IMG/VR virus record: IMGVR_UViG_3300044655_001017
DNA length: 64,000 bases
From: a virus
Lineage: Duplodnaviria > Caudoviricetes
Direction: 5' to 3' (one strand)
The position numbers were made by a program, and so were the translations under genes. Position 1 is the stretch's first letter, and every line of letters begins with the position of its first letter. The notes beneath the pieces were generated by a model. That model saw only the letters and a list, made by a program, of their open reading frames with translations. It made no database searches and was not told where the DNA came from. This document shows positions 2,038 to 60,170 of the stretch, piece after piece.

Positions 2038-5016
2038 ATGCGGTTACGCGAATTATACGAAACAATAAATCTGTTTGAAGCATACGATACTAAAGTTGCT
2101 AAACTACATAAAGAATTTGCTCAAATGCGAGCAGGCTTTCCAGAAAAGCCTGAAACACAATGGGGGCCTGCAGTACCCGCAATTCCAGGTGACCCAAATG
2201 TACCGGATGAAACTCAATTAGCAGCATTAGTTAGTTTTGCCGAACAAGCATTTAAGTCAGGTGCAAAACCATCTGAACAAGCAATGCAATGGTACTTGTC
2301 ATTACTTGAAACTTATTATAAACAAAACGATCCTAAGTTTGCAGGTAAGTTTGCTGCAATGTGCGGTGAATATCAATTTACTGATTTTAATTCATTAAAC
2401 AATGATCTAGCACATTTCTTCACATCAGAATATGCTGATTCACAGTATATAAAGGACATAGTTAAAGCAATTAGACCAGCTACTACTCAAATTGATAATC
2501 TTATTACTAATGCAACTGCAGCTGAACAAAGAATACATGCAGAACACGAAGCAGCACGTAAATTAGCAGGTCGTCCGGATATTAAATTAATGGAAGGCGA
2601 TCAAGTAATATTACCAGTAGATAACAAATATGATTGGTGGTGGTTACCATATAGATCACACGAGTTTGAATCGGCAGCTATGGGACATTGCGGTAACTGT
2701 CAAACATCTGATGGAAATATGTTAAGTCTTCGTACTAACAAACCTATATGGCCTGAATTAACATTTGAATGGAATCCACAAGATAAAATGTTATATCAAA
2801 CAAAAGGCCCTCATAATTCAAAACCTGCTCATAGATATCGTCCGGCTATTTTAAAATTAATGCTTAGTGATTTAATAAGCGGCATTGGTAATGACTCATA
2901 TCAACCAGCTAACGACTTTTCTATATTTGACTTTGAACCAGCAGATGTAAAAACAATTGCAGATCAAAAACCAGATTTGATTACTAGCCAAATAGTAAAG
3001 TATCCGATTGACTTTTTAAGAGCTCCAGAATTTATTAGAGCTATTCCTGAATTTAGAGATATTGCAGTACAAAACGCACGCGGACTAGCAGCACTAGTTG
3101 ACAATACTGGCAAAGTTAACACATCACTAGATGCATGGGAAGATGCAATCGAAGCTGACAGAAGTATTATTATTTACGCTCCGGAAAATCTTAAAGATTA
3201 TGAAGACCGAATTATCGATGCGTTAAAACGTGATTCATCATTGCTAGGATTTGCAAGTGCTAAGATTCGCGGTAATCACAAAATTATGTCTGAAGTAATT
3301 AGATGGAATCCTAACTCAATTGAACTAGTTCCTCTTAGAGCACCTGCATATGAAGAACTAGCACTACAAGCAGTTACAAAAAGAGGTGAGCTATTAAAGG
3401 CTATTCCTGTAGAAAAAAGAACATATGAAATGTGTCTTACAGCTGCAAAAAATCGCCAGCTATGGGATGAAACTCCATTGAGAGAGTTTTACGAATTGTT
3501 TAATACACTACCCTTTACTAAAGACCAACATAGTGAATTAGCTTCATTGGTATTACAATACGATACAGAAAATAAATTATTAGATTTACTACCGGCTAAA
3601 ATTAGAACATTCCTATCATCAATGGCTCGTCTTAAACGCAGTGAACGTGACTATTATGGTGACGACCGCGCAGTACACGTAAAAGAAATAGTTGATTCAG
3701 TTACTCCTGGTTCAGTATCTGATGAAGAATATATGAAAATCTGTTTAAAGGCAGGTGAATTATCATTCCACCGCGCAGTACCAACAGAATTCCAAACATA
3801 TGAATATTTTAAAAAATATATACTTACTATAGAACCAACTGCAAACCGTATTATTACACCGGTCTTTACTCCCGCGTTTAAACAATTACCGCCTGAACAA
3901 CGAGAAGAGTTAGTATCAATTGCTGTAAAGTTATGTCCTGAATCGTATTTTGAATTACCATACGAGTATAAACTTAACTTATCTAGAACACTGAAGATGA
4001 TACAAAAAACTGATAGACCGTTAACTCATGGCATCGTTGCCGATATTACACTAGCGGCAAGTGAAAATGGTGTAACTGACGAAGACTATGATAAGTTAAT
4101 TGCGTATTACAAACACTCGCTTAAAGAAAGTGATGGTTCAGCTATATCCTATTTAAAAAACTATGCATTGACGCAAGCTAAAAAATATAATAACGATGAT
4201 TGGTTTGACGTGTTAGCATATGGCGCTAAACTTAACTTAACAGAATTTATAAATATTTTAACTCCTGATTTTGTTGATAATAACTTCGAATGGGTTGTTG
4301 ATACTATATGTAAAGAATTTAGTCAGTCTAGCTCAAATTTGCACTTTAGTGTATTAACCAACCGATATCCTGAAATTGTTGTTGAATTATTCAAACGCCT
4401 ACCAACTAGTGAGCTAGGTAAACTACAATACCCGCATTATATAGAACAAATGTATGAACTTGATCCTCGCAAGTTTAAACGAGTATTAGAGATTATGGTA
4501 GATCGAGAACCGCATTTAATTGCAGAAATACAAAATTTAGTACCAGACTATATTCCAGAAACAGAACAACCTTGGTTAGATAGATTAAACCATAAAGGAT
4601 TTACTAATGGTGGAATTGCGGCATTAAAATATAACTTCCCAATAGAGCTACTAACTCCTGAACTATTAAATACTGCAATCCTTGGTGCAAATAGAATGGA
4701 TGCTAATATTGAAAGAAAAATAGAGGAGTTATACAAATACTATAAAGATAAACCGGAATACGACGCCGTATTAGAAAATATGTTAGATCTTGTACCTAAC
4801 ATAATTACAATGTTATCTCCTCAAGAGATTGAGCTGTTTCATGTAAAACGCTTTATAACGTATTTAGAAAACAAAAAACATCCACCAGAAAGTATACTGC
4901 TACATTTTAGAAGAGAACCATTTCCGTCAGCTGCATCCCTAAAACCAAACATCGCAGAATATCTAAACAAATATAAAGCAGAGAAAGCACCTAACCTTAG
5001 CACTATCTCTTTTTAA
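2038..5016 (+). CDS. Large protein with PcfJ-like GHCG...Q.KG..NSKP domain and DUF4116-like helical repeats; paralog of next gene
   Basis: 992 aa; N-terminal ~450 aa visibly homologous to 5026..7758 (MGHCG, LSLR, KG..NSKP, YQPA.DFSIFD, KYPIDFLRAP). Confidence 0.6.
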   Translation: MRLRELYETINLFEAYDTKVAKLHKEFAQMRAGFPEKPETQWGPAVPAIPGDPNVPDETQLAALVSFAEQAFKSGAKPSEQAMQWYLSLLETYYKQNDPKFAGKFAAMCGEYQFTDFNSLNNDLAHFFTSEYADSQYIKDIVKAIRPATTQIDNLITNATAAEQRIHAEHEAARKLAGRPDIKLMEGDQVILPVDNKYDWWWLPYRSHEFESAAMGHCGNCQTSDGNMLSLRTNKPIWPELTFEWNPQDKMLYQTKGPHNSKPAHRYRPAILKLMLSDLISGIGNDSYQPANDFSIFDFEPADVKTIADQKPDLITSQIVKYPIDFLRAPEFIRAIPEFRDIAVQNARGLAALVDNTGKVNTSLDAWEDAIEADRSIIIYAPENLKDYEDRIIDALKRDSSLLGFASAKIRGNHKIMSEVIRWNPNSIELVPLRAPAYEELALQAVTKRGELLKAIPVEKRTYEMCLTAAKNRQLWDETPLREFYELFNTLPFTKDQHSELASLVLQYDTENKLLDLLPAKIRTFLSSMARLKRSERDYYGDDRAVHVKEIVDSVTPGSVSDEEYMKICLKAGELSFHRAVPTEFQTYEYFKKYILTIEPTANRIITPVFTPAFKQLPPEQREELVSIAVKLCPESYFELPYEYKLNLSRTLKMIQKTDRPLTHGIVADITLAASENGVTDEDYDKLIAYYKHSLKESDGSAISYLKNYALTQAKKYNNDDWFDVLAYGAKLNLTEFINILTPDFVDNNFEWVVDTICKEFSQSSSNLHFSVLTNRYPEIVVELFKRLPTSELGKLQYPHYIEQMYELDPRKFKRVLEIMVDREPHLIAEIQNLVPDYIPETEQPWLDRLNHKGFTNGGIAALKYNFPIELLTPELLNTAILGANRMDANIERKIEELYKYYKDKPEYDAVLENMLDLVPNIITMLSPQEIELFHVKRFITYLENKKHPPESILLHFRREPFPSAASLKPNIAEYLNKYKAEKAPNLSTISF

Positions 5017-5025
5017 GGAAAAATA

Positions 5026-7758
5026 ATGAGACTAAGAGAATTATACGAAACAATACAACTAGATGAAAACTATAATGGTAAGGTAAACAAACTTAAAAAC
5101 TCACCTTTGTTTGCACAAAACCCTGATCTACTACAAGACTTTGATGCACGACTTGGATGGGCTAAACAAGTGTTCAGTGATAAGAATCAACCTATGCTTT
5201 GGTATATCACACTATACGAAGCTTGGCTATTACAAGAACAAGACCCTAATGCAAAAACAAAATACGAAACAATGTTAGGCGGCCATCCACCTTTTGACTT
5301 TGCTGAATTTGAACAAACATTAAATCACTGGCTGTCTAGTGCATACGCAGAAAGAAATCAAATTAAAGACGTAGTTAAAAAGATCAACGCCCAAACTACA
5401 ACTGTTGATGCATTAATTAAAAACTTAGAAGCAGCTGAAGCAGTTATTAAAAAAGAAGATGAAGCTAAAGCTAAGAACGCAACTCCGATTGAAATACTTG
5501 AAGGCGACCATATTATATTGCCGCTTGGTAATCAAGGAGATTGGTGGTTACTACCTACTAGTTCTCATAAGGCAGAATCTAAGATTATGGGACATTGCGG
5601 TACAGCAGGAAACAACAAAAACGTACTATTGAGCTTACGTGATAAAACTCCAATACCTTGGGTTACTATGGAATACAGTGCTGACAACAAAGAACTACAT
5701 CAAATGAAAGGAAGATCTAATTCTAAACCTGCAAATAAATTCCATCATGCAATACTTGCATTATTAAAAAGCGATTTAGTTGACGGAATGTTTACTGGTC
5801 AAACATATCAACCAGCAAGTGACTTTTCTATATTTGATATGAACCCTGCAATGATAGAAGATGTTGCCGCTACTAAACCAAATCTTATAATGACTCAAAT
5901 TAAAAAGTATCCAATTGACTTTTTAAGAGCACCTCAAACGTTACGTGCAACTCCCGACTATAGAAACTTTGCTATATCATGCTTACCGGGTATTGCTGTA
6001 ATCTTAGACGAAGATGGCGTTACTTCAACAGATAACGACACTTGGGAAGAAGCAATTAACCAAGATCCTGGTATGATTATCTATTCACCCACTACATTAA
6101 AAGATTGGGAAAACCGTGTTACTAAATATTTGGTAAAAAATCATAGAAACTTAGGCTATTGCGGTAATCATATCCGTAGTAATTATAATATAATGAAAGA
6201 AGTAATTACACACGGAGATGCAGCTGCAATTGAATTAGTACCATACAGAGCACCTCAGTATAAAGAACTAGCATTACTTGCTATTGGACAATCGCCAATA
6301 TTGATTAAATCAGTAAACACAGAAGGCTGGTCTAAAGAGGAAATGAGAAAAGCATGGATGAATGCAGCTCATACATATTTAGATACAGAAGATTGGCCAG
6401 ATGAGTTATTTACACCTGAAGATGACAAAGAAATTTGGCGTACACAGGTTAAAAATAATAGATATTCAATTTCAAAAATTCCACCTGGATTGTTTGATGA
6501 ACAAGAATTAATTGAGGTATGGGGTGATGCAACTAAAGCACATCCTGGATTAATAAAGTCATCAGGGTTTATCAACTTAAATATCCCAAACGAAGCAAAA
6601 GATCAAATGAGAATTGCTGCAGTATTTGAACACCCAGAATATATTGCTGAATTTAGACCTGACTTAATTGAAGATGAAAATGATAGAATTGAACTTTGGA
6701 CTAAGGCATGTGATAGCTATCCTAACTTAATTACTGTACTTAAGAAAGCAGCAATACCTGATGAAGTTAAAATAGAATTAACTGTTAAGACAGTACGTGA
6801 TAATCCTACATATATTACAAATATTGATCAACGCTTAATACCTGATGAAAACGAAAGAATTGAACTTTGGATTAAAGCATGCAAAGTTCAACCAAAATAT
6901 AAAAATGATCCGCAATTTCCAACAGACGCATTCGATAGAAATCCTGCAAAACTAAAAGAATTATGGATTAGTATGTTTGAAACCACCTTACCTCATGATT
7001 GCCCTCGGTTGAATGAAATTCCAACAGAACTATTTACCCCAGAAGAATTAACTACATTAGCACGTAAAGTAATTGATAAAGACCCAAGCCAACTAATGTA
7101 CGCGCCGCCCTCTATAACAACTGCTGAAGAAAAATTAACTACTATTAAAGATCTTATGAATAGTGACCCGTGGAAGGTGATGAGCTCGCCACATAATCCA
7201 ACTCCGCCTGATCTGTATACTAGAGAACAAATTAAAGAAGTTTGGGATTATGCGCTTAGTAACGTTACTGACCCAGAATCAGATAGCAACGATGGCTATA
7301 TCGTAACGTCCGATTGGTTGCCATATCATATCGTTGATCAAGACTTGTTAAAGAGTGCTATACAACACGCTGCAATATACGACTATTATGAGAACGATTC
7401 TATATTAGCTAGAATAAATTATAATTTGCTCGAACGACTATTTACTCCAGCAGAAATAAGAAAGTTACATAAAGATGTGATATTAAATGCCAATTGCTAT
7501 ATGGAAGCCGGCGGACCGTTTGCTGCTATACCTCTAAATTATAGAACTTATGAGTTATGTAGATTTGCACTTGATCATGACCCGTCTAATATAAACATAG
7601 TGGTAGCATCAAAAGAAAACTTTACTGAACGTGAATTTGAAGAATTGCGGGCAATGTCCAATGACCCAATTGATGAAGAGTTTGTTAGAGATATACAACA
7701 ACATACCGCACATAACTCATTCCAAAATTACCGCCCATTACCATTTGAAGGACAATAA
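5026..7758 (+). CDS. Large paralog with the same N-terminal domain and helical repeats
   Basis: 910 aa; identical MRLRELYETI start; internal repeat DE.DRIELW.KAC. Confidence 0.6.
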   Translation: MRLRELYETIQLDENYNGKVNKLKNSPLFAQNPDLLQDFDARLGWAKQVFSDKNQPMLWYITLYEAWLLQEQDPNAKTKYETMLGGHPPFDFAEFEQTLNHWLSSAYAERNQIKDVVKKINAQTTTVDALIKNLEAAEAVIKKEDEAKAKNATPIEILEGDHIILPLGNQGDWWLLPTSSHKAESKIMGHCGTAGNNKNVLLSLRDKTPIPWVTMEYSADNKELHQMKGRSNSKPANKFHHAILALLKSDLVDGMFTGQTYQPASDFSIFDMNPAMIEDVAATKPNLIMTQIKKYPIDFLRAPQTLRATPDYRNFAISCLPGIAVILDEDGVTSTDNDTWEEAINQDPGMIIYSPTTLKDWENRVTKYLVKNHRNLGYCGNHIRSNYNIMKEVITHGDAAAIELVPYRAPQYKELALLAIGQSPILIKSVNTEGWSKEEMRKAWMNAAHTYLDTEDWPDELFTPEDDKEIWRTQVKNNRYSISKIPPGLFDEQELIEVWGDATKAHPGLIKSSGFINLNIPNEAKDQMRIAAVFEHPEYIAEFRPDLIEDENDRIELWTKACDSYPNLITVLKKAAIPDEVKIELTVKTVRDNPTYITNIDQRLIPDENERIELWIKACKVQPKYKNDPQFPTDAFDRNPAKLKELWISMFETTLPHDCPRLNEIPTELFTPEELTTLARKVIDKDPSQLMYAPPSITTAEEKLTTIKDLMNSDPWKVMSSPHNPTPPDLYTREQIKEVWDYALSNVTDPESDSNDGYIVTSDWLPYHIVDQDLLKSAIQHAAIYDYYENDSILARINYNLLERLFTPAEIRKLHKDVILNANCYMEAGGPFAAIPLNYRTYELCRFALDHDPSNINIVVASKENFTEREFEELRAMSNDPIDEEFVRDIQQHTAHNSFQNYRPLPFEGQ

Positions 7759-33209: not shown

Positions 33210-33286
33210 TGGCCTGCCTAACGGGACTTGAACCCATAGCCTTTCCCTTAGGAGGGGAACGCTCTGTCCATTTGAGCTATAGGCAG
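33210..33286 (-). tRNA. tRNA-Arg(CCT)
   Basis: Full cloverleaf, TTCCC-CTCCTAA-GGGAA, TTCAAGT T-loop, encoded CCA. Confidence 0.9.
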
Positions 33287-33865
33287 TTATCGTTTACTTG
33301 ATAAACGACTCATATTCATACTGCTAGATGTTCTAGGAGCAGGGGTACTTGGACGTGGTGCATAACTAGAGGACTGCGATAGCTTGTTCATATCCATTCC
33401 ACTTGCTCTCGGTGCCGCAGGGGCTGGAGCTTGTACTACTGGAGAAGGGGGTGGTGCAAACGATGTAGTAGGTGCTGCAGGGGCTGGATGGTTATTTACA
33501 ATAACTGTCTTATGCTCTACAATACGTTCAGCCGGTGCGCTATTACTGCCGCCATTAAACCCACCTGACAATGCGTGCCCAATCAACGCACCTGTAGCCA
33601 AGTTAGTTAAGGTGTTATCTTGATGTGGGGCTTGTACTACAACAGGAGCTGCAGGCTGTTGAATAACTTGAGGCTGCGGTGCATACTGTTGGGGTTGTTG
33701 GAATTGTTGTTGGATCTGGGCCTGTTGTACTTGTTGGGCCTGGAGCTGTTGGATCTGTGCTTGTTGCTCTTTCATCAGCCTGGCTTGCTTTTCTTCAGCA
33801 CTCTCGCCACAAGCCGTTAATGCCAACGCTGTTATAATAGCTAATGCCAATGTAGTTTGTTTCAT
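33287..33865 (-). CDS. Q/P-rich lipoprotein
   Basis: Signal peptide II with lipobox LTAC; low-complexity Q/P tracts. Confidence 0.7.
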   Translation of the reverse strand: MKQTTLALAIITALALTACGESAEEKQARLMKEQQAQIQQLQAQQVQQAQIQQQFQQPQQYAPQPQVIQQPAAPVVVQAPHQDNTLTNLATGALIGHALSGGFNGGSNSAPAERIVEHKTVIVNNHPAPAAPTTSFAPPPSPVVQAPAPAAPRASGMDMNKLSQSSSYAPRPSTPAPRTSSSMNMSRLSSKR

Positions 33866-33875
33866 AGTGTCTCCG

Positions 33876-34091
33876 TTATAGTAATGGGAATATAAACGCG
33901 TTGAGCAGTAAGAATACACCGCCTACAATTAAGATAAATCCAAATACAATTTGGTTATCTAGTTTACACGTTTTATCTACTGACACTGGTTTAATGCCAG
34001 GCTTCATGTTCTCATGATTGTTACACCCTTGTCCGCAACATACCGGCTCTGCAGGTTTTGTTTTGTTTTTGTTAGTTTCTTTTAAGGCCAT
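33876..34091 (-). CDS. Small protein with C-terminal TM
   Basis: Own promoter. Confidence 0.55.
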   Translation of the reverse strand: MALKETNKNKTKPAEPVCCGQGCNNHENMKPGIKPVSVDKTCKLDNQIVFGFILIVGGVFLLLNAFIFPLL

Positions 34092-34306
34092 GCTACTTGC
34101 TCCTGTGTTGTAAGTAAAAATATATTATAGCAAACTGTTATTGATGTGTAAAGAGTTTATACGCTCTTTTCGTTGAGTATTTAGCGCGTGTTGTGTTGTG
34201 TATAGTGTAGCATTAAACACAAAAATACCCGCGTTAAAACGCAGGTATCCTATGCTTTTTTTTGGAGTTTTTTGTTGTATGCTATGTTTTACACAGCATT
34301 GTAAGA

Positions 34307-34458
34307 GGTACTTGAGGCCGGACTCGAACCGTGCGTCTCCCCGGGCATGCAGGGCAGTTTGATTGTACCTGACTATATCGCGATTATAGTGTTAACAGCA
34401 CAATGGTTACTGGGTGCGTGCAAATAGCACCAACTCTAGCCAACTGAGTTACTCAAGT
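34307..34458 (-). ncRNA. tRNA-like RNA with 9-nt anticodon loop and ~80-nt insertion
   Basis: Acceptor ACTTGAG/CTCAAGT, D-arm ACTC/GAGT, GGTGC/GCACC arm, GGTTCGAGTCC T-arm. Confidence 0.7.
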
Positions 34459-34514
34459 ATAATTTGTGAACTAACGCCTCACGGTTTGATAAATAACATG
34501 AGGGAAATAAAAAT

Positions 34515-35210
34515 ATGAAATTATGTAAAGAATGTTCAACACCTGTTACAAAACGAGATAATATATTTTGTAACCGATCCTGTGCCGCAAAGTATAACAA
34601 CCGTTCAAAAGATTATTCAACATTTAAATCAGGACCACAAACATTAGAATCAAAATTAAAAACATCGTTGGTTAGACGTGCTATCAATAAACAGAAACGT
34701 TCATTAACAGGACCATCAAAAAATTATCTATATGTCACTTCACAAACTGCAATCAAAGAGGCCATTGCTAATAATATACCATACACTAAAGTTTATCTAT
34801 GTAACTGCAAAAAGACAAACATTACTTGGTATTCAACTTCATGGAAATGTGTACATCCTTCTGTAATACAATCAAAAAGTGAATATAGATATCAATGTCG
34901 TTTTAACTTTTCATTATCTCAATTTAAAGATTGGTTTGATTACTCATCTACACTAATTGAAACATATGGTTGGTATTCTGCATCCAACAAACATAATAAT
35001 CTATCCGGATGCTCTCGAGACCATATGTACTCAGTTAGTGATGGATATGCAAACAATGTCAGTCCTGCTATTATTTCACATCCTGCTAATTGCGAAATAA
35101 AACCACATCGTTTAAATCAATCAAAACATTCAATCTCCTCTATTACCTTAGAGGAGTTACATACTCGTATTGCCAAATTTGATAAACAATACGCTAATTG
35201 GAGGAACTAG
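34515..35210 (+). CDS. HNH homing endonuclease with N-terminal Zn finger
   Basis: CKEC..FCNRSC; SRDH..S....HPANC....H..N; ATAAATA at 34489 upstream. Confidence 0.75.
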   Translation: MKLCKECSTPVTKRDNIFCNRSCAAKYNNRSKDYSTFKSGPQTLESKLKTSLVRRAINKQKRSLTGPSKNYLYVTSQTAIKEAIANNIPYTKVYLCNCKKTNITWYSTSWKCVHPSVIQSKSEYRYQCRFNFSLSQFKDWFDYSSTLIETYGWYSASNKHNNLSGCSRDHMYSVSDGYANNVSPAIISHPANCEIKPHRLNQSKHSISSITLEELHTRIAKFDKQYANWRN

Positions 35211-35273
35211 CCGAAGTTGCATCGGCACCGCAAGGTTTTGCAGACCTGCATACTGCTGTTATACTATAGTTCC
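35199..35273 (-). tRNA. tRNA-Cys(GCA)
   Basis: GGAACTA/TAGTTCC acceptor, CTGCAAA loop, U73, CCA; atypical T-loop TGCAACT. Confidence 0.8.
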
Positions 35274-35319
35274 ATTAAAAATGGCATGTCGCTGCCGACG
35301 ACATATAAAATGTATTAGG

Positions 35320-35393
35320 GGTGACTAGTGGGACTTGAACCCACAAAATCTCGAATCACAATCGAGGACGTCTACCAATTCCGTCATAGTCAC
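35320..35393 (-). tRNA. tRNA-His(GTG), CCA not encoded
   Basis: CTCGA-TTGTGAT-TCGAG, C73, GGGTTCAAGTCCC. Confidence 0.85.
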
Positions 35394-35435
35394 ACCTAAT
35401 ACATCTTTAAAATTGTTATGTGATAAAACATTCTG

Positions 35436-35507
35436 TGCCTCCCCTCAGGATCGAACTGAGATAGTAGAAATTATGAGTTTCCTGCATTACCTTTATGCTA
35501 AAGAGGC
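35436..35507 (-). tRNA. tRNA with CAT anticodon (elongator Met or Ile2), CCA not encoded
   Basis: GGAAA-CTCATAA-TTTCT, CTCAG-TTCGATC-CTGAG; lacks initiator features. Confidence 0.8.
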
Positions 35508-42314: not shown

Positions 42315-42530
42315 TTATTTGTTGAGTAACACTAAACCGTATACTAAGTCATGTTCAAGATCAATGTCGTCATACGTTAAAATAAACTCTTCACCAGTGT
42401 CTTCGTGGTGTACATGGATCTCTTCAGCATCTGCAAAATCAATTACATAAGAATCATCACCTTGTACAAGGATTTTAGCTTCGCTAAACATTTCAATTAA
42501 CTTTTCATCAGTAACAGTAACAGTAGACAT
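42315..42530 (-). CDS. Small acidic protein
   Basis: Own promoter. Confidence 0.6.
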   Translation of the reverse strand: MSTVTVTDEKLIEMFSEAKILVQGDDSYVIDFADAEEIHVHHEDTGEEFILTYDDIDLEHDLVYGLVLLNK

Positions 42531-53044: not shown

Positions 53045-53151
53045 AACTTCTCCTTTTTACTGTGTGAATGTTTAAAACAAATTAAAGTATAAAGTAAACT
53101 TTACAATTTGTCAACTGAAAGTTTACTCTATACATGTTACAGCGGGGCCTT

Positions 53152-54231
53152 TTACCAGAACTTTACTTTTTTAAGTGCTTTATTCATTTCATTTGCTGCG
53201 CGATCGGCTGCTTCTCTAGCTTCGTTAGCTACACGATCTGCTTCTCTAGCTGCACTTTCTGCGGCTTCTTGTGCTGCTCTAGTTGCTCGTTCAGATGCTT
53301 CTTGTGCTTCTCTAATTGCTCTTTCAGATGCTTCTTGTGCTTCTCTAGCTGCGCGTTGTGCTTGCTCAAGTGCTTCTCTAGCTGCACGATCTGCTTGTTC
53401 TTGAGCTGCTCTTGCAATGCGATTAGCTTCTTCATTAGCAATGCGGGCAGCTTCTTGAGCTTCTTTAGCAACAATTTCCGCTTGCTCATGCGCAAAACGA
53501 GCTGACTCTAATGCTGCTTGATCAACTGCGTCTACAACTGGAGTAGTATCAACTGATAATTCAGCATTAAATTCTACACCAGCTAATAACTCTATTTCAC
53601 CTTCTACACCTATGCTAACGGTATTGCCGTGTACAGTTGCACCACCTCCAACTTCTGCACCAGCTTGTAATCCAATACTAACACCTGCACCTGCTTCAGC
53701 AGTTACGCCATGGCTTTCTGCTACTGCATTAGCTTCTACACCAACACTTGCACCTACTGATGCTCCTGCGTGTCCTTCTGCGCCATGTAACCCGACTGAT
53801 GCTTCGGCTTCAACACCGGCATGAGCTTCAGCATACGCGCCACCCGAAACACTAACTGTACCAACATCTTCATTACCAACTGATGCACTTGCTCCAACTT
53901 CAGCACGAGCTTCAACACTTGCACTAGCTTCAACAACTACATCTGTACCTGTCCATCCTGCACTTGCTTCAGCAGTAGCTTCAACTTCTGCAGTAGCGTG
54001 TGCTTCAGCTTCTAATGTAACATCACCTACTGTAACACTTGCACCGGCTTCTGCGCCAATACTTGCACCTGCGTGTGCTTCTGCTGATGCGCTTGTATCA
54101 GTTACTTCCGCACTTGCACCTGCGTGTGCTTCGGCATATACATCAGCATGTGATTCTTCTGTTATTGTTACGCCATTAAGCGTAACTGACTCTTCTTGGC
54201 TTACACCTGTACCTACTTCTTCTTTTGACAT
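53152..54231 (-). CDS. Ala/Glu/Gly/Val-rich beta-repeat protein with C-terminal coiled coil
   Basis: AEAHAGAS repeats; AAREA.EA.ERA heptads; CTAAATA at 54253-54259. Confidence 0.75.
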   Translation of the reverse strand: MSKEEVGTGVSQEESVTLNGVTITEESHADVYAEAHAGASAEVTDTSASAEAHAGASIGAEAGASVTVGDVTLEAEAHATAEVEATAEASAGWTGTDVVVEASASVEARAEVGASASVGNEDVGTVSVSGGAYAEAHAGVEAEASVGLHGAEGHAGASVGASVGVEANAVAESHGVTAEAGAGVSIGLQAGAEVGGGATVHGNTVSIGVEGEIELLAGVEFNAELSVDTTPVVDAVDQAALESARFAHEQAEIVAKEAQEAARIANEEANRIARAAQEQADRAAREALEQAQRAAREAQEASERAIREAQEASERATRAAQEAAESAAREADRVANEAREAADRAANEMNKALKKVKFW

Positions 54232-54262
54232 AACACTCTCCTTATTGTCTGCTATTTAGCTA

Positions 54263-54697
54263 TCAATAAGTCCACTGCGCAAACTGCTTAAAGAAACGTG
54301 TTATAGGTCCATTGTAATAGTTATACTCATCTTCTGTAACATCTCTTACTAAAACTAATTCTAATGGAGCTCTGAGTGAATTCCAATCAGAGAAATGTCT
54401 AATTACTGATAGGTTCGAACAGTATATAGCTTCATTCATTGTAGGTAGTCGCCATCCTCTCTTTCCATCATGCTTACTCAGCATAAACAAATGCATCGTT
54501 GCTTCATCAGCACTAGAACATAATAGTCCAGTATAAACGATTTCAATGATTTTTTTCTCATAGTGATTAACCGGGACTCCTACAACATAACGCACTCTGT
54601 TGTCGCCATAAGGATTCGTAGGTACGTCAAATTTTAAATATACATTACAATTGAATATTCGGTTAAACCATTTCATATTTGTTCCCTTACTGGACAA
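54263..54697 (-). CDS. mini-CLec/DUF1566-like member with N- and C-terminal extensions
   Basis: IIEI, DEA, GWRLPT, LVRD. Confidence 0.7.
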   Translation of the reverse strand: MSSKGTNMKWFNRIFNCNVYLKFDVPTNPYGDNRVRYVVGVPVNHYEKKIIEIVYTGLLCSSADEATMHLFMLSKHDGKRGWRLPTMNEAIYCSNLSVIRHFSDWNSLRAPLELVLVRDVTEDEYNYYNGPITRFFKQFAQWTY

Positions 54698-54882
54698 ACA
54701 ATTCGAAACTTCTTTACAGTTTTTGCGTTTTCATACCAACCAAGTAATTCATTTCTGCTAGCCCATTCTTTATGAGTTGGCATGCGCCAATCCTTGTGCC
54801 CATTATGTTCTAATATAAGACAGTATACCCATGCTTCGTCATATGTTAGCTGAGGGAAGAACGTTGGGGCGAATTCTATCAT
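54673..54882 (-). CDS. mini-CLec/DUF1566-like family member
   Basis: YDEAWVYC, DWRMPT, CPVRE. Confidence 0.75.
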   Translation of the reverse strand: MIEFAPTFFPQLTYDEAWVYCLILEHNGHKDWRMPTHKEWASRNELLGWYENAKTVKKFRIVCPVREQI

Positions 54883-55232
54883 CCTCTACGCATCCGTGAA
54901 ATCTCAGTTGCTTGCTCTTGGTTGATAACAGGAACTAAATTACTTTTGTGCATTTGCGCACATCCTTTAATCAAAGTACCTGTATACTTAGGAGGTTCAA
55001 TACGACTGCCGCCACCTTTAGTAGTTGTAACTAAACTGGGAGGTTTACTATCACTACCTCTATATGTTGGTGCAGGCGGAGTATATGACTGTTTCTTAAG
55101 TGCGTCTTTAAGAGATTTAGAACTAGATGGTTTGGTAGATAATCCGTGTTGCTTTGCCATAGCTAACCATTGCTTCTCAGCTTCTAATGCTTTACGCTTT
55201 TCTTCAGCTGATTTATACTTTGTTTTTTTCAT
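54879..55232 (-). CDS. Conserved T4-like-phage basic protein
   Basis: YTGTLIKG...MHKSNLVPV....A.EISRMRR. Confidence 0.6.
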   Translation of the reverse strand: MKKTKYKSAEEKRKALEAEKQWLAMAKQHGLSTKPSSSKSLKDALKKQSYTPPAPTYRGSDSKPPSLVTTTKGGGSRIEPPKYTGTLIKGCAQMHKSNLVPVINQEQATEISRMRRG

Positions 55233-55464
55233 TTATATCCCTCACTGGTATAATAAAACAGGTTGCATTATAGTTTAACCACGCAGCGTTAGGCCTACCA
55301 ATATAGTCAACTATATCCCATGTATCAAAGAATTCTAATTTCATTCGTTCGTCATATGTTGGCATCCTCCAATCATACTTGTTATTATGAGTTAGGGTAG
55401 CACAGTACAACCATGCTTCGTCACATGTTATCTTGTGCGGCGATTCGTCTGCATGCTCAATCAT
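55213..55464 (-). CDS. mini-CLec/DUF1566-like family member
   Basis: DEAWLYC, DWRMPT, IPVRD. Confidence 0.75.
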   Translation of the reverse strand: MIEHADESPHKITCDEAWLYCATLTHNNKYDWRMPTYDERMKLEFFDTWDIVDYIGRPNAAWLNYNATCFIIPVRDINEKNKV

Positions 55465-55756
55465 GCTTAGTCCTTACTGCCAATACACGTCCGCGATTGT
55501 GAGGATCGTGTGATGACGGATTGTCTAAATCATCTTGTGTCCACACATACTTTGGTTTGTATATAAACGAATTACACCGAGTTGCTTCTCTGAGAGCATA
55601 AATCTCATCTACTTCACTACTAGTGGGTAATCGCCATCCTTTCTTTCCTTCAAACTCTAAGAATGTACAATACATAACTGCTTCATGTAAAGACATCCTG
55701 TTAGGATTTGGATCTACTGGTAGATAATGTACACTTAATGGTTTATGATATTTCAT
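55457..55756 (-). CDS. mini-CLec/DUF1566-like family member
   Basis: EAVMYC, GWRLPT, AVRT. Confidence 0.75.
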   Translation of the reverse strand: MKYHKPLSVHYLPVDPNPNRMSLHEAVMYCTFLEFEGKKGWRLPTSSEVDEIYALREATRCNSFIYKPKYVWTQDDLDNPSSHDPHNRGRVLAVRTKHD

Positions 55757-55980
55757 AAATCTCTCACTGGGTATATGTGATAGCTGAAAAATCTATCGTT
55801 ATCAATTCTTCCTTGATGCCATGCCATATACGCTAAAGGACCTTCAACCCATTCGTCTGGAGTAGGAAATCGCCAGTCTGCATGCCCATCATGGACTAGA
55901 GTAATTACATACAAAAAAGCTGCATCGCGATTATATAATTTCCGACTGATCCCAGGTGGATTAGATAATATTTCTATCAT
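55753..55980 (-). CDS. mini-CLec/DUF1566-like family member
   Basis: DWRFPT, YPVRD. Confidence 0.75.
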   Translation of the reverse strand: MIEILSNPPGISRKLYNRDAAFLYVITLVHDGHADWRFPTPDEWVEGPLAYMAWHQGRIDNDRFFSYHIYPVRDL

Positions 55981-56288
55981 TTGTCTCTCACTGCAACTGC
56001 TATACCTGTTTTACGATTTTCATATGGTTCAATCATAGCTTCTATAGCTTGCTGGGTATGGTTGTATTGTTTTGCAAGCAATGCTCGTTCTTCATTCGTA
56101 CTCTCTCGATACCATGTATTAGTTGTAAGTCTGCCATCTGCAGTATCTGCCCATTCAAGTAAAGTTGGCAACCGCCAGCCTTTCTTTCCTTGGTGATCTA
56201 AAAACAAACAATACATAACAGCTTCGGCATACGTTATAAATTTTGATTGACAAGTGGCTACTAGCATATGGCTCCTTACATAAAACAT
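55977..56288 (-). CDS. mini-CLec/DUF1566-like family member
   Basis: EAVMYC, GWRLPT, AVRD. Confidence 0.75.
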   Translation of the reverse strand: MFYVRSHMLVATCQSKFITYAEAVMYCLFLDHQGKKGWRLPTLLEWADTADGRLTTNTWYRESTNEERALLAKQYNHTQQAIEAMIEPYENRKTGIAVAVRDK

Positions 56289-56326
56289 TATTATAGCGCA
56301 AAACTTAGGACTTTACAAATGGTATT

Positions 56327-56551
56327 TTAATCAGCAGTGCGCACTGGACATATTTTATGTGTTACTTTAGCTATCTTAAGACCTTCATCATTCTGATCAA
56401 ACGCATCGCAATCAATTGCTTCGTAATCACAAAATTCTTCTTCAGTTGGTATGCGCCAGTCATACTTGTTATTATATGTTAGTGTAGCACAGTATAGCCA
56501 GGCATCATCAAATGAGAACCGGCCGGCTGGCATTGGGGCAATCTCAAGCAT
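56327..56551 (-). CDS. mini-CLec/DUF1566-like family member
   Basis: DDAWLYC, DWRIPT, CPVRT. Confidence 0.75.
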   Translation of the reverse strand: MLEIAPMPAGRFSFDDAWLYCATLTYNNKYDWRIPTEEEFCDYEAIDCDAFDQNDEGLKIAKVTHKICPVRTAD

Positions 56552-56813
56552 CTTTAGTTCTCACTGGTTGTACAACTCTTATTGATAAGAATTTTAAACT
56601 TTTTACCGTTGGTAAGCTGTTTAGATTGCTATCTCTAAAATCATCTTCATCCGAGTCATCATATGCTGATAGTGAAATTCCATCAATATCTTCATATTCG
56701 TCATGGGTTGGAATACGCCAATCGTATTTGTTATCGTGTATACAGGTAGCGCAGTATAGCCATGCTTCGTCGTAATTTAGATATTCATTTAATATAGGTG
56801 CAATCTCAAGCAT
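56544..56813 (-). CDS. mini-CLec/DUF1566-like family member
   Basis: YDEAWLYC, DWRIPT, QPVRT. Confidence 0.75.
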   Translation of the reverse strand: MLEIAPILNEYLNYDEAWLYCATCIHDNKYDWRIPTHDEYEDIDGISLSAYDDSDEDDFRDSNLNSLPTVKSLKFLSIRVVQPVRTKDA

Positions 56814-57024
56814 CTTTAGTTCTCACTGGTTGTACACGCCAATGGCTAGGACGTGGTTCGTCTGATTGATCAAAGGATTCTTCATCAATTTCGTCGTTGT
56901 ATGTAAACTCGTAATCAGTTGGAATACGCCAATCATATTTGTTATTATGAGTTAGAGTAGCACAGTACAACCAAGCGTCGTCATATGACATCTTATAATC
57001 AGATAGTGGTGCTAGTTCAATCAT
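56806..57024 (-). CDS. mini-CLec/DUF1566-like family member
   Basis: YDDAWLYC, DWRIPT, QPVRT. Confidence 0.75.
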   Translation of the reverse strand: MIELAPLSDYKMSYDDAWLYCATLTHNNKYDWRIPTDYEFTYNDEIDEESFDQSDEPRPSHWRVQPVRTKDA

Positions 57025-57034
57025 AATTTCTCCT

Positions 57035-57507
57035 ATTAGGTATAAAGGACTAAAGTCCTAAATTATAATAATTTTATATTCGTTGGCACTCATATCAATT
57101 ATTATAATTTTATTTTCTTTCTTTGAATATTTTGTTAGATTTAGAAGTCATATTGGCCCGCAAAGGCCAATGGAACATTTGTTGAGTTTCTTCATGTCTT
57201 AGCATTAGAGCATTACAGAGGCGGTCATCCGGTACCTCGAGCTCCGTCCTGGTTTTTATATGACGGCGGACTAATTATACAATGCTAACCATATAATCAG
57301 TCGTAAGGGTGTTACCCTTTCTTTTAACCTTATGTGTACAGCGGGGCCATAACCTGTAATGAGTTTTGTAAAGGTACATCTCATGTTCATCCAAATGGGT
57401 AGGTGGTTATGTCGTTGCTACAGTTCAACAATTCCATCACTGTGATACATCTGTCCAGTTATAGGGCGCATAGATAATACAGTTTGCGCGACACCTGCTG
57501 TAGTTAT
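57035..57507 (-). ncRNA. Candidate large structured ncRNA or leader
   Basis: ORF-free ~480 nt with many nested helices downstream of TTGACA-N17-TATAGT. Confidence 0.55.
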
Positions 57508-57513
57508 GCGTAC

Positions 57514-57542
57514 ACTATACAGTATATGCACACGTATGTCAA
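57514..57542 (-). promoter_or_regulatory. Near-consensus sigma70 promoter
   Basis: TTGACA-N17-TATAGT. Confidence 0.75.
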
Positions 57543-57568
57543 GTGTTATTATGTTACAGCGGGGCCTT

Positions 57569-57775
57569 TTAGTACGATGCAGCTGTACTAACAGGAAGTA
57601 ACAACCATTCTTCTAAGTTACCTGTATAGTTATCGCCAGTAAAGATTTCCATCTCGCAACGAAACTCGTCATGTTTAAAAGCATAAACAGTAATGCTAGA
57701 ATCGATTGATATTATCCGCATGTACAACATACATCCAGTTTCTACTATTCTTCTGTCAGTATAAATGGTTTCCAT
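57569..57775 (-). CDS. Hypothetical protein
   Basis: CTAAATA (57798-57804) and GGAG RBS. Confidence 0.55.
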   Translation of the reverse strand: METIYTDRRIVETGCMLYMRIISIDSSITVYAFKHDEFRCEMEIFTGDNYTGNLEEWLLLPVSTAASY

Positions 57776-57960
57776 GGTATTACTCCGGTTGATAAATTAT
57801 TTAGTGTATGTGTTACAGCGGGGCCTATTTGCATATAACGTGTTATGCGTATAGTATATAAGTGTATATGTGTGTTGTCAATGTGTATGAGCGTATTACA
57901 TGTATATGTAATTATACTCGTGTGGAAATGTGTGTAATGCAGAGTTTACAGCGGGGCCTT

Positions 57961-58203
57961 TTATGGTTTAGGCTTCTTAACAAACCTGCCACCTGCACCA
58001 CGTGCATTTGGCATCATAACAACTTTGGTATTAGCATTAGCAATATCAACACCATTGTTGAAACTTTGATGAGTAGCTCTGTTAGTAGTAGCACGATTGG
58101 GATACTTTTTACCCCATGACCATCCTGCGCGATGTCCGCTACAGTCTTTAGTGCATTGCGAGCCGTGAAAGGTTAGTTCGTTTAAAAGTTCTTCTATTTT
58201 CAT
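57961..58203 (-). CDS. MKIEELL-type small protein (CTKDCSGH.AGW)
   Basis: ATAAATA at 58209-58215 directly upstream. Confidence 0.65.
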   Translation of the reverse strand: MKIEELLNELTFHGSQCTKDCSGHRAGWSWGKKYPNRATTNRATHQSFNNGVDIANANTKVVMMPNARGAGGRFVKKPKP

Positions 58204-58211
58204 AAAACTAT

Positions 58212-58463
58212 TTATGCATTTTTAACATCTCGAACTAGAATTACGTCACAAATTGCAGTATTATAATCATCACTTTCCATGCGTTCTTTGTTCCAACACC
58301 ATCCAACAATCGTTGGAATTCCACTCATGTTAGTTAGACATTCTTCTAGAGTAGGAAATCTCCACCCTCTGCCATTGTGTTCAAAAAATAAACAATACAT
58401 TTGTGCTTGATCTTTTGGAAGTGGTTTTTTCCATGTTTCTCTTGGTGAAATTTCAATCGTCAT
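58212..58463 (-). CDS. mini-CLec/DUF1566-like family member
   Basis: IEISP, AQMYC, GWRFPT, LVRD. Confidence 0.75.
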   Translation of the reverse strand: MTIEISPRETWKKPLPKDQAQMYCLFFEHNGRGWRFPTLEECLTNMSGIPTIVGWCWNKERMESDDYNTAICDVILVRDVKNA

Positions 58464-58713
58464 CTTTTCTATCCCTTACTGGTACTATACAGTACAAATC
58501 GTCAGTATCGCATAAATTAGTATCAACTAAATCGTCTTCATACCATTCTCCTAACATACTTATATGATATGTGGACTCGTTGCCAATTAGTTCTCGATAA
58601 GTAGGGAATCGCCATCCTTTCTTGCCGTCTATTACTAAGAATAAACAATACATTTGTGCTTCATCTCGGCACATTGCTTTCCAATAGTCTTTTGGGGATA
58701 TTTCAATGCTCAT
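58453..58713 (-). CDS. mini-CLec/DUF1566-like family member
   Basis: IEISP, DEAQMYC, GWRFPT, VPVRD. Confidence 0.75.
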   Translation of the reverse strand: MSIEISPKDYWKAMCRDEAQMYCLFLVIDGKKGWRFPTYRELIGNESTYHISMLGEWYEDDLVDTNLCDTDDLYCIVPVRDRKDDD

Positions 58714-59316
58714 ATTATACTTATAAGTTAATTTAATTTAATAAAGTATAACAAGTTGTGTAGGACAAGTCAACTGACTTGAAAGAAGTGCCTGCGCAAG
58801 TATTGTAGTATGCGCAGGCTACTGGATTGGATTACGCATGCCACCAGACTGGAGGTGTTATAATGTATCCGCAGAACATTACCCATACTAGTGTTGCAAA
58901 GCATACTACGCTTGCAACATGCAATACGTCAATTAAGATGTCGTTTGTACTTCGTGAAGCAGCGTAAGTTGTAATAGTGTTAATCATAGTGTAGTCTCCT
59001 TTGTTAATGTCTACATAGTATTTTATGCTATTTTAACATGAAAAACAAGTAGCTAAACAGTAAAATGACTATCTACATTTAGTAAACAATCAAGCTAACA
59101 TTATTACATTATCGTAATCATTGTTTATAATAATGTATTAAGTCGTCTGAAATAACAACTTTACACTTATTATATAGTGTGTAAAAGTTTGTGTAAGCGC
59201 GTTTAGGTGATTGGCCTTGACCTAGGGTTTGTCCTAGTTTGCAGTACCAGGTGTTGTTTTGTTTAAAGAGTTTTGGTTTCATATGTCCTCGTAGTGTAAC
59301 AACTGTATTTATTTGC

Positions 59317-59345
59317 TTGACACACTGTATATAATAGTTTATAAT
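59317..59345 (+). promoter_or_regulatory. Consensus sigma70 promoter at the strand switch
   Basis: TTGACA-N17-TATAAT. Confidence 0.8.
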
Positions 59346-59375
59346 ATGCAAACATTTTTAACTACAGGAGCAACA

Positions 59376-59666
59376 ATGCTTGAAATAAGTATAGGAGTAA
59401 CTAATCCATTTGTAACACACAATGGATTTCGTGATCTGTTTAACTTGCATGGATCATTTACTAAACACAAACACTGGGAAATAGAAGGTATATTTAATAA
59501 AGATATTATAGCAGGGTTTGAACTAGGCACACACTTATGGGGTTCTGATCACGCAGGTCCATGTTTACGCATTGGATTATTATGTTTTGAATTAAACATA
59601 AACATGTACGATAGTAGACATTGGAGTTACAAAAATAACACATGGACTGAATACGATTATGAGTAA
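59376..59666 (+). CDS. Hypothetical protein
   Basis: CAGGAG RBS; DHAGP motif. Confidence 0.65.
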   Translation: MLEISIGVTNPFVTHNGFRDLFNLHGSFTKHKHWEIEGIFNKDIIAGFELGTHLWGSDHAGPCLRIGLLCFELNINMYDSRHWSYKNNTWTEYDYE

Positions 59667-59922
59667 GAAAGAGCCAATAGAACATAGAGACTTACTTAAT
59701 AAAAAAATAGCAGTAGGTGACATTGTTGCGTTTGCAGAAAGCGGATCGCAGTATGTTGGTAAGATAACTAAGTTAACACCAAGACGTGTTAAGATTAATC
59801 GTATTACTGCACATGATCCAAACCGATGGTTTAAGCAAACTGCATATCAACGTCCACCGGATGATGTTGTTATTATAGAAGGCGCACATGTTACTGCGTA
59901 TATTATGGCAAATTCAAATTAG
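59659..59922 (+). CDS. SH3/KOW-like small protein
   Basis: DLLNKKIAVGDIVAF...GKITKLT. Confidence 0.6.
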   Translation: MSKKEPIEHRDLLNKKIAVGDIVAFAESGSQYVGKITKLTPRRVKINRITAHDPNRWFKQTAYQRPPDDVVIIEGAHVTAYIMANSN

Positions 59923-59930
59923 GAGATATA

Positions 59931-60170
59931 ATGAAAAATTGTTTAGTCGGAATGTTCAAATTACCTGGCCTTACATTTGAAAGAGGACAACTTAGTGAAG
60001 AACTAATTAAAGAAATGGAAGACTGGTGTAAAGAAAACAATTGCGGAACTAAGATGACAGATACTCTTTGGAGCTTTAAAAGCGAAAAGAAACGTAACTG
60101 GTTTATTTTACGTTGGTGTGATAGTTTACCAAAACAAACTGAAGATGGATCAACTTACTTAGTCCACTGA
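59931..60170 (+). CDS. Hypothetical protein
   Basis: AGGAG RBS. Confidence 0.6.
   Translation: MKNCLVGMFKLPGLTFERGQLSEELIKEMEDWCKENNCGTKMTDTLWSFKSEKKRNWFILRWCDSLPKQTEDGSTYLVH

Follow-up and report, generated by a model that had tools for sequence, protein, structure and literature searches.

The DNA studied here is a 64-kb stretch of the virus record IMGVR_UViG_3300044655_001017, referred to below as the window, and the RNA gene lies on its minus strand. The locus opens with a sigma-70-type promoter, whose hexamers match the consensus at 11 of 12 positions in our promoter scan, and transcription is predicted to start near A57507. The ORF scan found no open reading frame of 40 aa or longer between 57035 and 57542 on either strand, and the ORF-free stretch extends to 57024, where a 72-aa gene has its ATG. 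The GC content is 0.41-0.43 in the RNA region, compared with 0.25-0.37 in its flanks, and the predicted fold has a minimum free energy of -116.8 kcal/mol (z = -4.0), with none of 100 shuffled sequences folding as well. The promoter (TTGACA-N17-TATAGT), the lack of open reading frames, the higher GC content and the dense pairing had been described in a sequence-only reading of the same DNA, and our analysis agrees with it on these points. The features of the locus are collected in Table 1. We argue that positions 57507..57041 are very probably, taken as a whole, the gene of a stand-alone structured non-coding RNA of ~467 nt, which is the full-length form of an RNA whose 5' third is the Polynucleobacter-1 motif.

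Table 1. Predicted features of the RNA locus in the window
Feature	Position	Strand	Details and basis
Sigma-70-type promoter	57514..57542	-	-35 TTGACA 57542-57537, 17-nt spacer, -10 TATAGT 57519-57514
PK0, leader strand CUACAG	57498..57503	-	Pairs with P3 loop CUGUAG 57423-57418; family permutation test
Domain 1, Polynucleobacter-1 motif (RF01718)	57350..57494	-	Model positions 1-141; 59.6 bits, gathering score 37
Outer helix of domain 1, CAUAACC/GGUUAUG	57411-57405 with 57354-57348	-	RF01718 model
Copy of motif GGCCCCGCUG, linker of domains 1 and 2	57339..57348	-	Relatives have UUUGAA.AGRAU there
Hairpin Pa, AAGGGU-AAC-ACCCUU	57305..57319	-	Alignment A1
Hairpin Pb	57269..57302	-	Conserved loop UUAGCAU (57288-57282) is the 5' strand of PK1; covariation
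Domain 2, pseudoknotted core	57199..57264	-	Alignments A1 and A2, model R1
Helix GUCAU/AUGAC	57264-57260 with 57228-57224	-	99.2% paired, 3/5 pairs change on both sides
Helix GAGC/GCUC	57244-57241 with 57211-57208	-	Helix of alignment A2
Helix GAGG/CCUC	57238-57235 with 57221-57218	-	Covariation in alignment A2
PK1, UUAGCAU/AUGCUAA	57288-57282 with 57205-57199	-	7/7 pairs covary
Twin box 1, AACAAAU	57177..57183	-	After AAACUC; family alignment
Hairpin between the boxes, AUUGGCC-UUUGCG-GGCCAAU	57152..57171	-	Covaries in relatives
Twin box 2, AACAAAA	57130..57136	-	After AAAUCU; family alignment
Long AU-rich hairpin	57060..57110	-	Tip loop GAGUGCCAACGAA at 57091-57079; family-conserved loop
Weak terminator-like hairpin AGGAC-UUUA-GUCCU and UUUAUA, likely 3' end	57040..57059	-	Hairpin at 57059-57046; similar terminal hairpin in relatives

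The terminator was not called by the consensus scan because its tail has only 4 U, and it is weak, so that the transcript may continue into the downstream genes. The extent of the unit on the other side is suggested by comparison with a 94-96% identical relative (L033/G002), which has kept both promoter hexamers and has diverged in the spacer. Homology with this relative starts at 57550, 8 nt ahead of the -35 hexamer, with none further upstream of the promoter, and extends at 94% identity as a single block over promoter, RNA and first downstream gene. As homology begins just before the -35 hexamer and the hexamers are kept, the RNA and its promoter behave as a unit amid fast gene turnover. Our analysis shows that in the phage of the window the RNA is a predicted independent transcription unit with a host-type promoter.

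The sequence of this region is present in many lake-water metagenomes. We compared four RNA libraries with window positions 56500-58100 and found contigs that cover parts of the region only. Those from one lake-water run are short, lie over the core of domain 2 (57210-57321), come in some cases from relatives and could reflect DNA carry-over. Another RNA run gave one exact 243-nt contig (57453-57694) that reaches from the upstream ORF across the promoter into the 5' end of the RNA, for which DNA carry-over is likewise possible.

In a scan with Rfam 15, the first 145 nt of the RNA matched RF01718 with E = 3.7e-10 over the whole window and E = 4.7e-12 locally. The match runs without truncation over 141/141 model positions, with a few non-canonical pairs in P2 and in the outer helix. 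Among the 12 members that were scored, the copy of the window is the most divergent and has the lowest score, the others reaching 80-122 bits. The remaining ~320 nt matched no Rfam family at threshold. The sequence-only reading had not recognised the RNA, had called it unclassified, and had named an Rfam hit as the finding that would remove its novelty. For the 5' third, which is RF01718, this assessment does not stand; for the 3' two-thirds it does.

The Polynucleobacter-1 motif was described as a 141-nt RNA with no known function, based on 16 freshwater or estuary examples and one Polynucleobacter genome, and its authors found it in none of the purified phages that had been sequenced (Weinberg et al. 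2010, Genome Biol 11:R31, PMC2864571). The flanks of the original alignment already hold blocks of the downstream part, for example AAAGGAGACAGCGAAACCGCCCUU. At the 5' side, the leader of the RNA can pair with the P3 loop of domain 1. In a set of 96 distinct leader-loop pairs from the family, the longest Watson-Crick helix between leader and loop has a mean of 4.32, compared with 3.24 for permuted partners. At least 10 helix sequences occur in the family, such as ACGG/CCGU, ACAG/CUGU, UUGG/CCAA and UCACCA/UGGUGA, and the helix of the window has 6 bp.

The pattern of domain 1 matched 99 IMG/VR contigs. In nearly all 99, a second conserved block follows at a fixed distance downstream, which corresponds to 57269-57198 of the window, and the pattern of domain 2 alone matched more than 120 contigs among the matches listed. 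RF01718 was present in 11/11 re-scanned loci (80-122 bits), 6 of which had been found by domain 2 only. Since all re-scanned loci carry both domains, domains 1 and 2 belong to one RNA. Its conservation spans ~450-470 nt from the leader to the terminal hairpin and is found in more than 200 uncultured phage contigs. In a gapped alignment the copy of the window is again the most divergent one, being at most 42% identical to all relatives but one. The sequence-only proposal of a large phage non-coding RNA is thus supported by the anatomy from promoter to terminator, by the more than 200 viral contigs and by strong covariation.

Among 50,697 phage records, blastn gave no match in cultured phages for the RNA of the window, for its domain 2 or for a consensus-like member. 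A loose pattern picked up 17 loci in bacterial genomes, and true RF01718 was found only in a Limnohabitans MAG and in a Planctomycetaceae MAG, where it lies on a 779-bp contig. Neither Rfam 15 nor the literature found that names the motif contains the RNA at full length, its pseudoknots or its twin boxes. What was already known is its 5' third as RF01718.

Domain 2 is located ~100 nt after domain 1. We aligned 106 copies that are mutually less than 85% identical (alignment A1), built the covariance model R1 from them, and realigned 100 copies to R1 (alignment A2), in which five helices were counted with pseudoknot brackets. The window scores 120.3 bits against R1 at 57359-57183, and all helices are formed in its row of A2. 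Covariation among homologs, which the sequence-only reading had named as a check, is strong. In A2, 96.7% of 3287 cells are paired, compared with 75.8% in shuffled alignments, and both sides have changed in 28 of the 33 pairs. The covariation score is 0.618 against 0.208 for shuffles, a value reached by 0/500 of them, and sliding the 3' partners by 1-3 columns brings it to 0.117 or less.

Pa occurs in A1 with stems such as AGGG/CCCU, GCAGG/CCUGC, GGGG/CCCC and GCUAC/GUAGC. All 12 stem pairs of Pb change on both sides, with 95% paired. PK1 joins the conserved Pb loop to the 3' edge of the core and is found as UUAGUGU/ACACUAA, CUGAUAU/AUAUCAG and UUAACGU/ACGUUAA in relatives. The GUCAU/AUGAC helix makes a second pseudoknot in this region because it crosses both GAGC/GCUC and GAGG/CCUC. 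Between the helices, domain 2 has the invariant single-stranded blocks UCG.GGUACCGG and ACCGCC.CUG.AA, both present in the window, and their invariance suggests that they may make tertiary contacts or form a binding site.

The 3' part of the RNA, its third conserved domain, has a layout that recurs through the family, in which a 7-nt word after ACUC is followed by a GC-rich hairpin and by the same word again after AUCU. We refer to the two words as twin boxes. They are identical in ~120 of 126 copies, and 11 different words occur, for example GGAUAAU, AGAUAAU, GGAUGAA and GCAUAAU. The mutual information between the boxes is 0.85-0.96 bits at 3 of 4 variable positions, and ~0.5 at the little-varying position 2. 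The hairpin between them is found as UUUGCCC/GGGCAAA, UUAGCCC/GGGCUAA, UUCGCCC/GGGCGAA and UUGACCC/GGGUCAA. In the window the two boxes agree at 6/7 positions and differ at position 7, or agree fully if one A is inserted. The same two words, AACAAAU and AACAAAA, are found in the close relative L033. They are 3 positions away from the nearest other word, and the same three changes are seen in both boxes. As read from the alignment, the rule that the boxes change together appears to hold even in the window, the most divergent member.

What could read these boxes was sought at several levels. Apart from the boxes themselves, no column of the RNA shares more than 0.5 bits of mutual information with them, and no 6-mer complementary to a box is present inside the RNA. 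The complement of the box is not enriched in the DNA flanking the loci and is lacking in the phage tRNAs of the window. Permutation tests for helices closing around the boxes did not tell real from permuted partners (5.2 compared with 4.9, 5.34 with 5.35 and 6.24 with 6.24). Since the complement is absent inside the RNA and not enriched in the flanking DNA, and no other column covaries with the boxes, the partner that reads them should lie outside the RNA. The other copies of the box word in the window, at 42317 and 36229/36257, are inside coding regions and are consistent with chance.

Beyond the boxes stands the long AU-rich hairpin, whose loop is of the conserved tandem-GA type. In relatives the loop reads GAGCG-NNN-AGCGAA on variable stems, and its covarying positions 4 and 10 hold either C and G or U and A. 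The window fits the resulting pattern, GAG(C/U)G-NNN-A(G/A)CGAA followed by the terminal hairpin.

With the family at hand, the base pairs drawn from the single sequence could be judged one against another. CATAACC/GGTTATG and ATGAG/CTCAT are helices of the RF01718 model, and CTACAG/CTGTAG proved to be a leader-to-loop pseudoknot, as seen from the permutation test and its many helix types. The long-range pair TTAGCATT/AATGCTAA is the covarying pseudoknot PK1, and GAGG/CCTC likewise has covariation on its side. For AAGGGT/ACCCTT, for ATTGGCC/GGCCAAT, whose stem varies with pairing kept, and for the 14-bp AT stem, which corresponds to variable stems around a conserved loop, the family alignment agrees by eye. 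Two proposals failed. The outer pairs of CCGTC/GACGG are broken in 40-59% of relatives without covariation, and the CGG-ATGA-CCG hairpin, whose letters do not vary, clashes with the GUCAU/AUGAC helix, which covaries.

The phage of the window is related to Pseudomonas jumbo phage PA5oct, whose helicase is 58% identical to that of the window; the nearest related record is 88.6 kb long and estimated to be 25% complete. A DnaB-like helicase at 599-2002 adjoins two adjacent proteins of 992 and 910 aa (2038-7758, plus strand), each with a DUF4116 repeat and otherwise unannotated. A tRNA cluster at 33210-35507 on the minus strand holds Arg-CCU, His-GUG and Met-CAU by ARAGORN, and a fourth tRNA at 35202-35273 by Rfam only. 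Between 54000 and 60000 there are dense small minus-strand ORFs with strong sigma-70-like promoters, for example at 57881-57853 (11/12) and 58773-58745 (10/12). The promoter scan gave 46 promoter-like sites against 24 expected. Judged by its promoters and gene arrangement, 54000-60000 looks like an early-gene region transcribed by the host RNA polymerase.

The gene upstream of the RNA in the window is an unrelated 68-aa ORF. The three small genes downstream, labelled CLec in the sequence-only reading, have only sub-threshold matches to Lcl_C (PF07603, E = 0.002-0.007). They lie at 56327-57024 and belong to a multi-copy family of 70-90 aa with paralogues near 55358, 50364, 22784 and 21743. The window holds at least seven copies, and the related record G001 has further ones.

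The usual surroundings of the RNA are different. In 88 of the 99 loci, it starts a few nt to tens of nt after the stop of a ~142-aa GIY-YIG protein, which consists of a SegE-type catalytic domain only (PF19835, positions 1-123/123, E = 2.5e-34). The setting is T4-like, with the GIY-YIG gene downstream of a gp46/Rad50-like gene and with convergent genes after the RNA. The GIY-YIG gene (L102:2805-3263 and its equivalents at the 88 loci) has no recognisable DNA-binding domain, and its place in the genome is constant, which sets it apart from a typical mobile homing endonuclease. The PHROGs label of its family phrog_447, 'NAD synthetase', looks like a mis-annotation. No SegE-like GIY-YIG gene was found in the 64-kb window or in the related records G001 and G002 (88 kb and 38 kb, only 25% and 10% complete), and none of the 21 neighbouring ORFs of the window has a homologue beside the RNA at the 98 other loci. 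We have thus shown that the RNA need not adjoin the SegE-like GIY-YIG gene found in front of it in most of the T4-like relatives.

One further element of the locus recurs elsewhere in the phage. The sequence-only reading had noted a copy of a repeated motif inside the RNA, and GGCCCCGCTG is indeed found at 57348-57339. With one mismatch allowed, there are 20 copies in the window against 0.46 expected, all on the minus strand within 9221-57958, for example at 57557-57566, 57816-57825, 57949-57958 and 53140-53149. The copies are almost always intergenic, usually 2-4 bases past a stop codon in an A-rich context, and their distance to the next promoter is variable. By its distribution, GGCCCCGCTG is a putative phage-wide signal that follows the direction of transcription. 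The RNA leader UACAGCAGG (57498-57506) is complementary to CCCGCUGUA of this motif at 8/9 positions, and the same CCGCUGUA also occurs in the consensus of the P3 loop in T4-like members (CCGCUGUAGC). The complementarity of the leader to GGCCCCGCUG may be a coincidence, as the UA is not conserved among the copies of the motif.

The position of the RNA in front of small genes of the same orientation raises the question whether it is a cis-acting 5' leader, either riboswitch-like or a processing platform, with the three Lcl_C-like genes that follow being under its control and read from the same promoter. The sequence-only reading had offered such a regulatory leader as one of its two options. The weak terminator would allow it, the first small gene has its ribosome-binding site and ATG 16 nt after the last hairpin, and in G002 the first downstream gene is kept in one block with promoter and RNA. 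The authors of the Polynucleobacter-1 motif had also marked it as possibly cis-regulatory, but their supplement places it downstream, not upstream, of a gene, which is GOS11034, a SegE-like GIY-YIG gene (PMC2864571). Moreover, the RNA family has its own terminal hairpin, and in most relatives there is nothing downstream for the RNA to regulate because the following genes are convergent. Since the proteins that flank the RNA in the window are not shared with the 98 other loci, a role as leader of the downstream genes has no support as a property of the family. We consider a leader quite improbable as an explanation of the locus, and unlikely for the family, with local read-through being possible.

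The GIY-YIG gene that precedes the RNA at most loci could instead point to a partnership, in which the RNA and the ~142-aa SegE-like GIY-YIG-only protein form a ribonucleoprotein nuclease, with the protein encoded elsewhere in the phage of the window. The 88 loci with this arrangement favour the idea, and the variable twin boxes could be its specificity elements. However, gene neighbourhood alone is weak evidence, searches of the window and of its relatives of 88 kb and 38 kb did not find the gene, and the RNA of the window has its own promoter. Such a ribonucleoprotein is possible for the T4-like members but gains no support from the window, for which we regard it as very improbable. Least likely of all, and hardly credible, is a DNA-level element, for example an origin of replication or a packaging site, that would consist of the promoter and an AT-rich unwinding region, with the hairpins being incidental. 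It is true that very AT-rich DNA (GC 0.25 at 57000-57149) with a long AT inverted repeat comes after a strong promoter, but the AT-rich stem has a variable sequence in relatives. In addition, only one of the two strands tolerates G-U pairs, the covariance models that score here are strand-specific, compensatory changes extend across the pseudoknots, and the single-stranded blocks are invariant. Strand-specific, G-U-tolerant covariation and invariant unpaired blocks are properties of a folded RNA, and a DNA-level role therefore fits poorly.

We therefore return to the stand-alone structured RNA. Our comparative analysis shows a predicted conserved, heavily constrained fold that combines three pseudoknots with unpaired blocks that do not vary and with a variable word displayed twice. 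To understand how such an RNA may act, we propose that it would be transcribed early by the host RNA polymerase in a freshwater bacterium infected by a PA5oct-like jumbo phage. It could then act in trans as a folded scaffold that shows two copies of one short single-stranded word. An outside partner that is itself bivalent, either a protein dimer or a pair of identical nucleic acid molecules, would read the boxes, and the purpose might be host takeover or competition between mobile elements. A more specific version, in which the twin boxes are programmable recognition elements that both pair with the same outside sequence (a host small RNA, an mRNA or DNA), seems unlikely to us. If it were true, the RNA would be a bivalent guide or sponge borne by mobile elements, with a specificity that is retuned in each phage lineage, and the AACAAA word of the window would reflect a host or target other than those of the RGAURAW words of T4-like members.

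These results would mean that a motif listed in Rfam since 2010 makes up a third of a large RNA with three pseudoknots, which is common among freshwater phages. The window adds a promoter-driven, stand-alone form in a PA5oct-like jumbo phage, with no nuclease neighbour and with the most divergent box word. Such a copy without the GIY-YIG gene beside it speaks against a strict need for RNA and nuclease to be neighbours. The RNA is a defined target for probing, pull-down and cryo-EM, and an extended Rfam model is justified.

GOLLD and ROOL are large, ornate RNAs without known function that are borne by phages and prophages. The RNA of the window resembles them in its large and intricate fold, in its carriage by mobile elements and in its strong covariation, and differs in being smaller, at ~0.47 kb. 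No sequence or model match to the Rfam families of GOLLD and ROOL was found in the window with Rfam 15, and to our knowledge the twin-box module has no counterpart in them. Within domain 2, a resemblance to cow-rumen-2 (RF02947) can be seen, which has the same order of blocks, namely the hairpin with the UUAGCA loop, GCCGYCA, GGAUGACC and GUAA, and gives a weak match exactly over this domain. The match scores 19.1 bits in the window, and a relative (L128) has one of 22.9 bits, both far below the gathering score of 66, so that neither qualifies as a member, and 10 of the 12 members tested gave no match. In the cow-rumen-2 model UUAGCA and GGAUGACC are placed in plain hairpin loops, whereas in the RNA of the window both take part in covarying pseudoknots. 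By these block and score comparisons, cow-rumen-2 would be at most a distant relative of one module.

The related phage PA5oct, the nearest one in culture, depends on the host RNA polymerase, has promoters of the TTGAC/TATAATA type and makes abundant lncRNAs (PMC7318152). Its ncRNA002 is a 451-nt lncRNA that is transcribed at a high level all through infection and accounts for 4.65%, 5.04% and 1.23% of the phage reads in early, middle and late infection (PMC7318152). Homology to ncRNA001 or ncRNA002 was considered and rejected, as neither has an RF01718 match or a meaningful match to R1. The likeness to ncRNA002 is one of similar size and of a place among small-gene arrays in related jumbo phages. 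The closest known system is Polynucleobacter-1 itself, with which the RNA of the window shares a full-length match and a freshwater habitat. There the motif is 141 nt long and usually sits behind a GOS11034/GIY-YIG gene, whereas here it forms the 5' third of a ~467-nt RNA with three pseudoknots and twin boxes, carried on a jumbo-phage contig under its own promoter.
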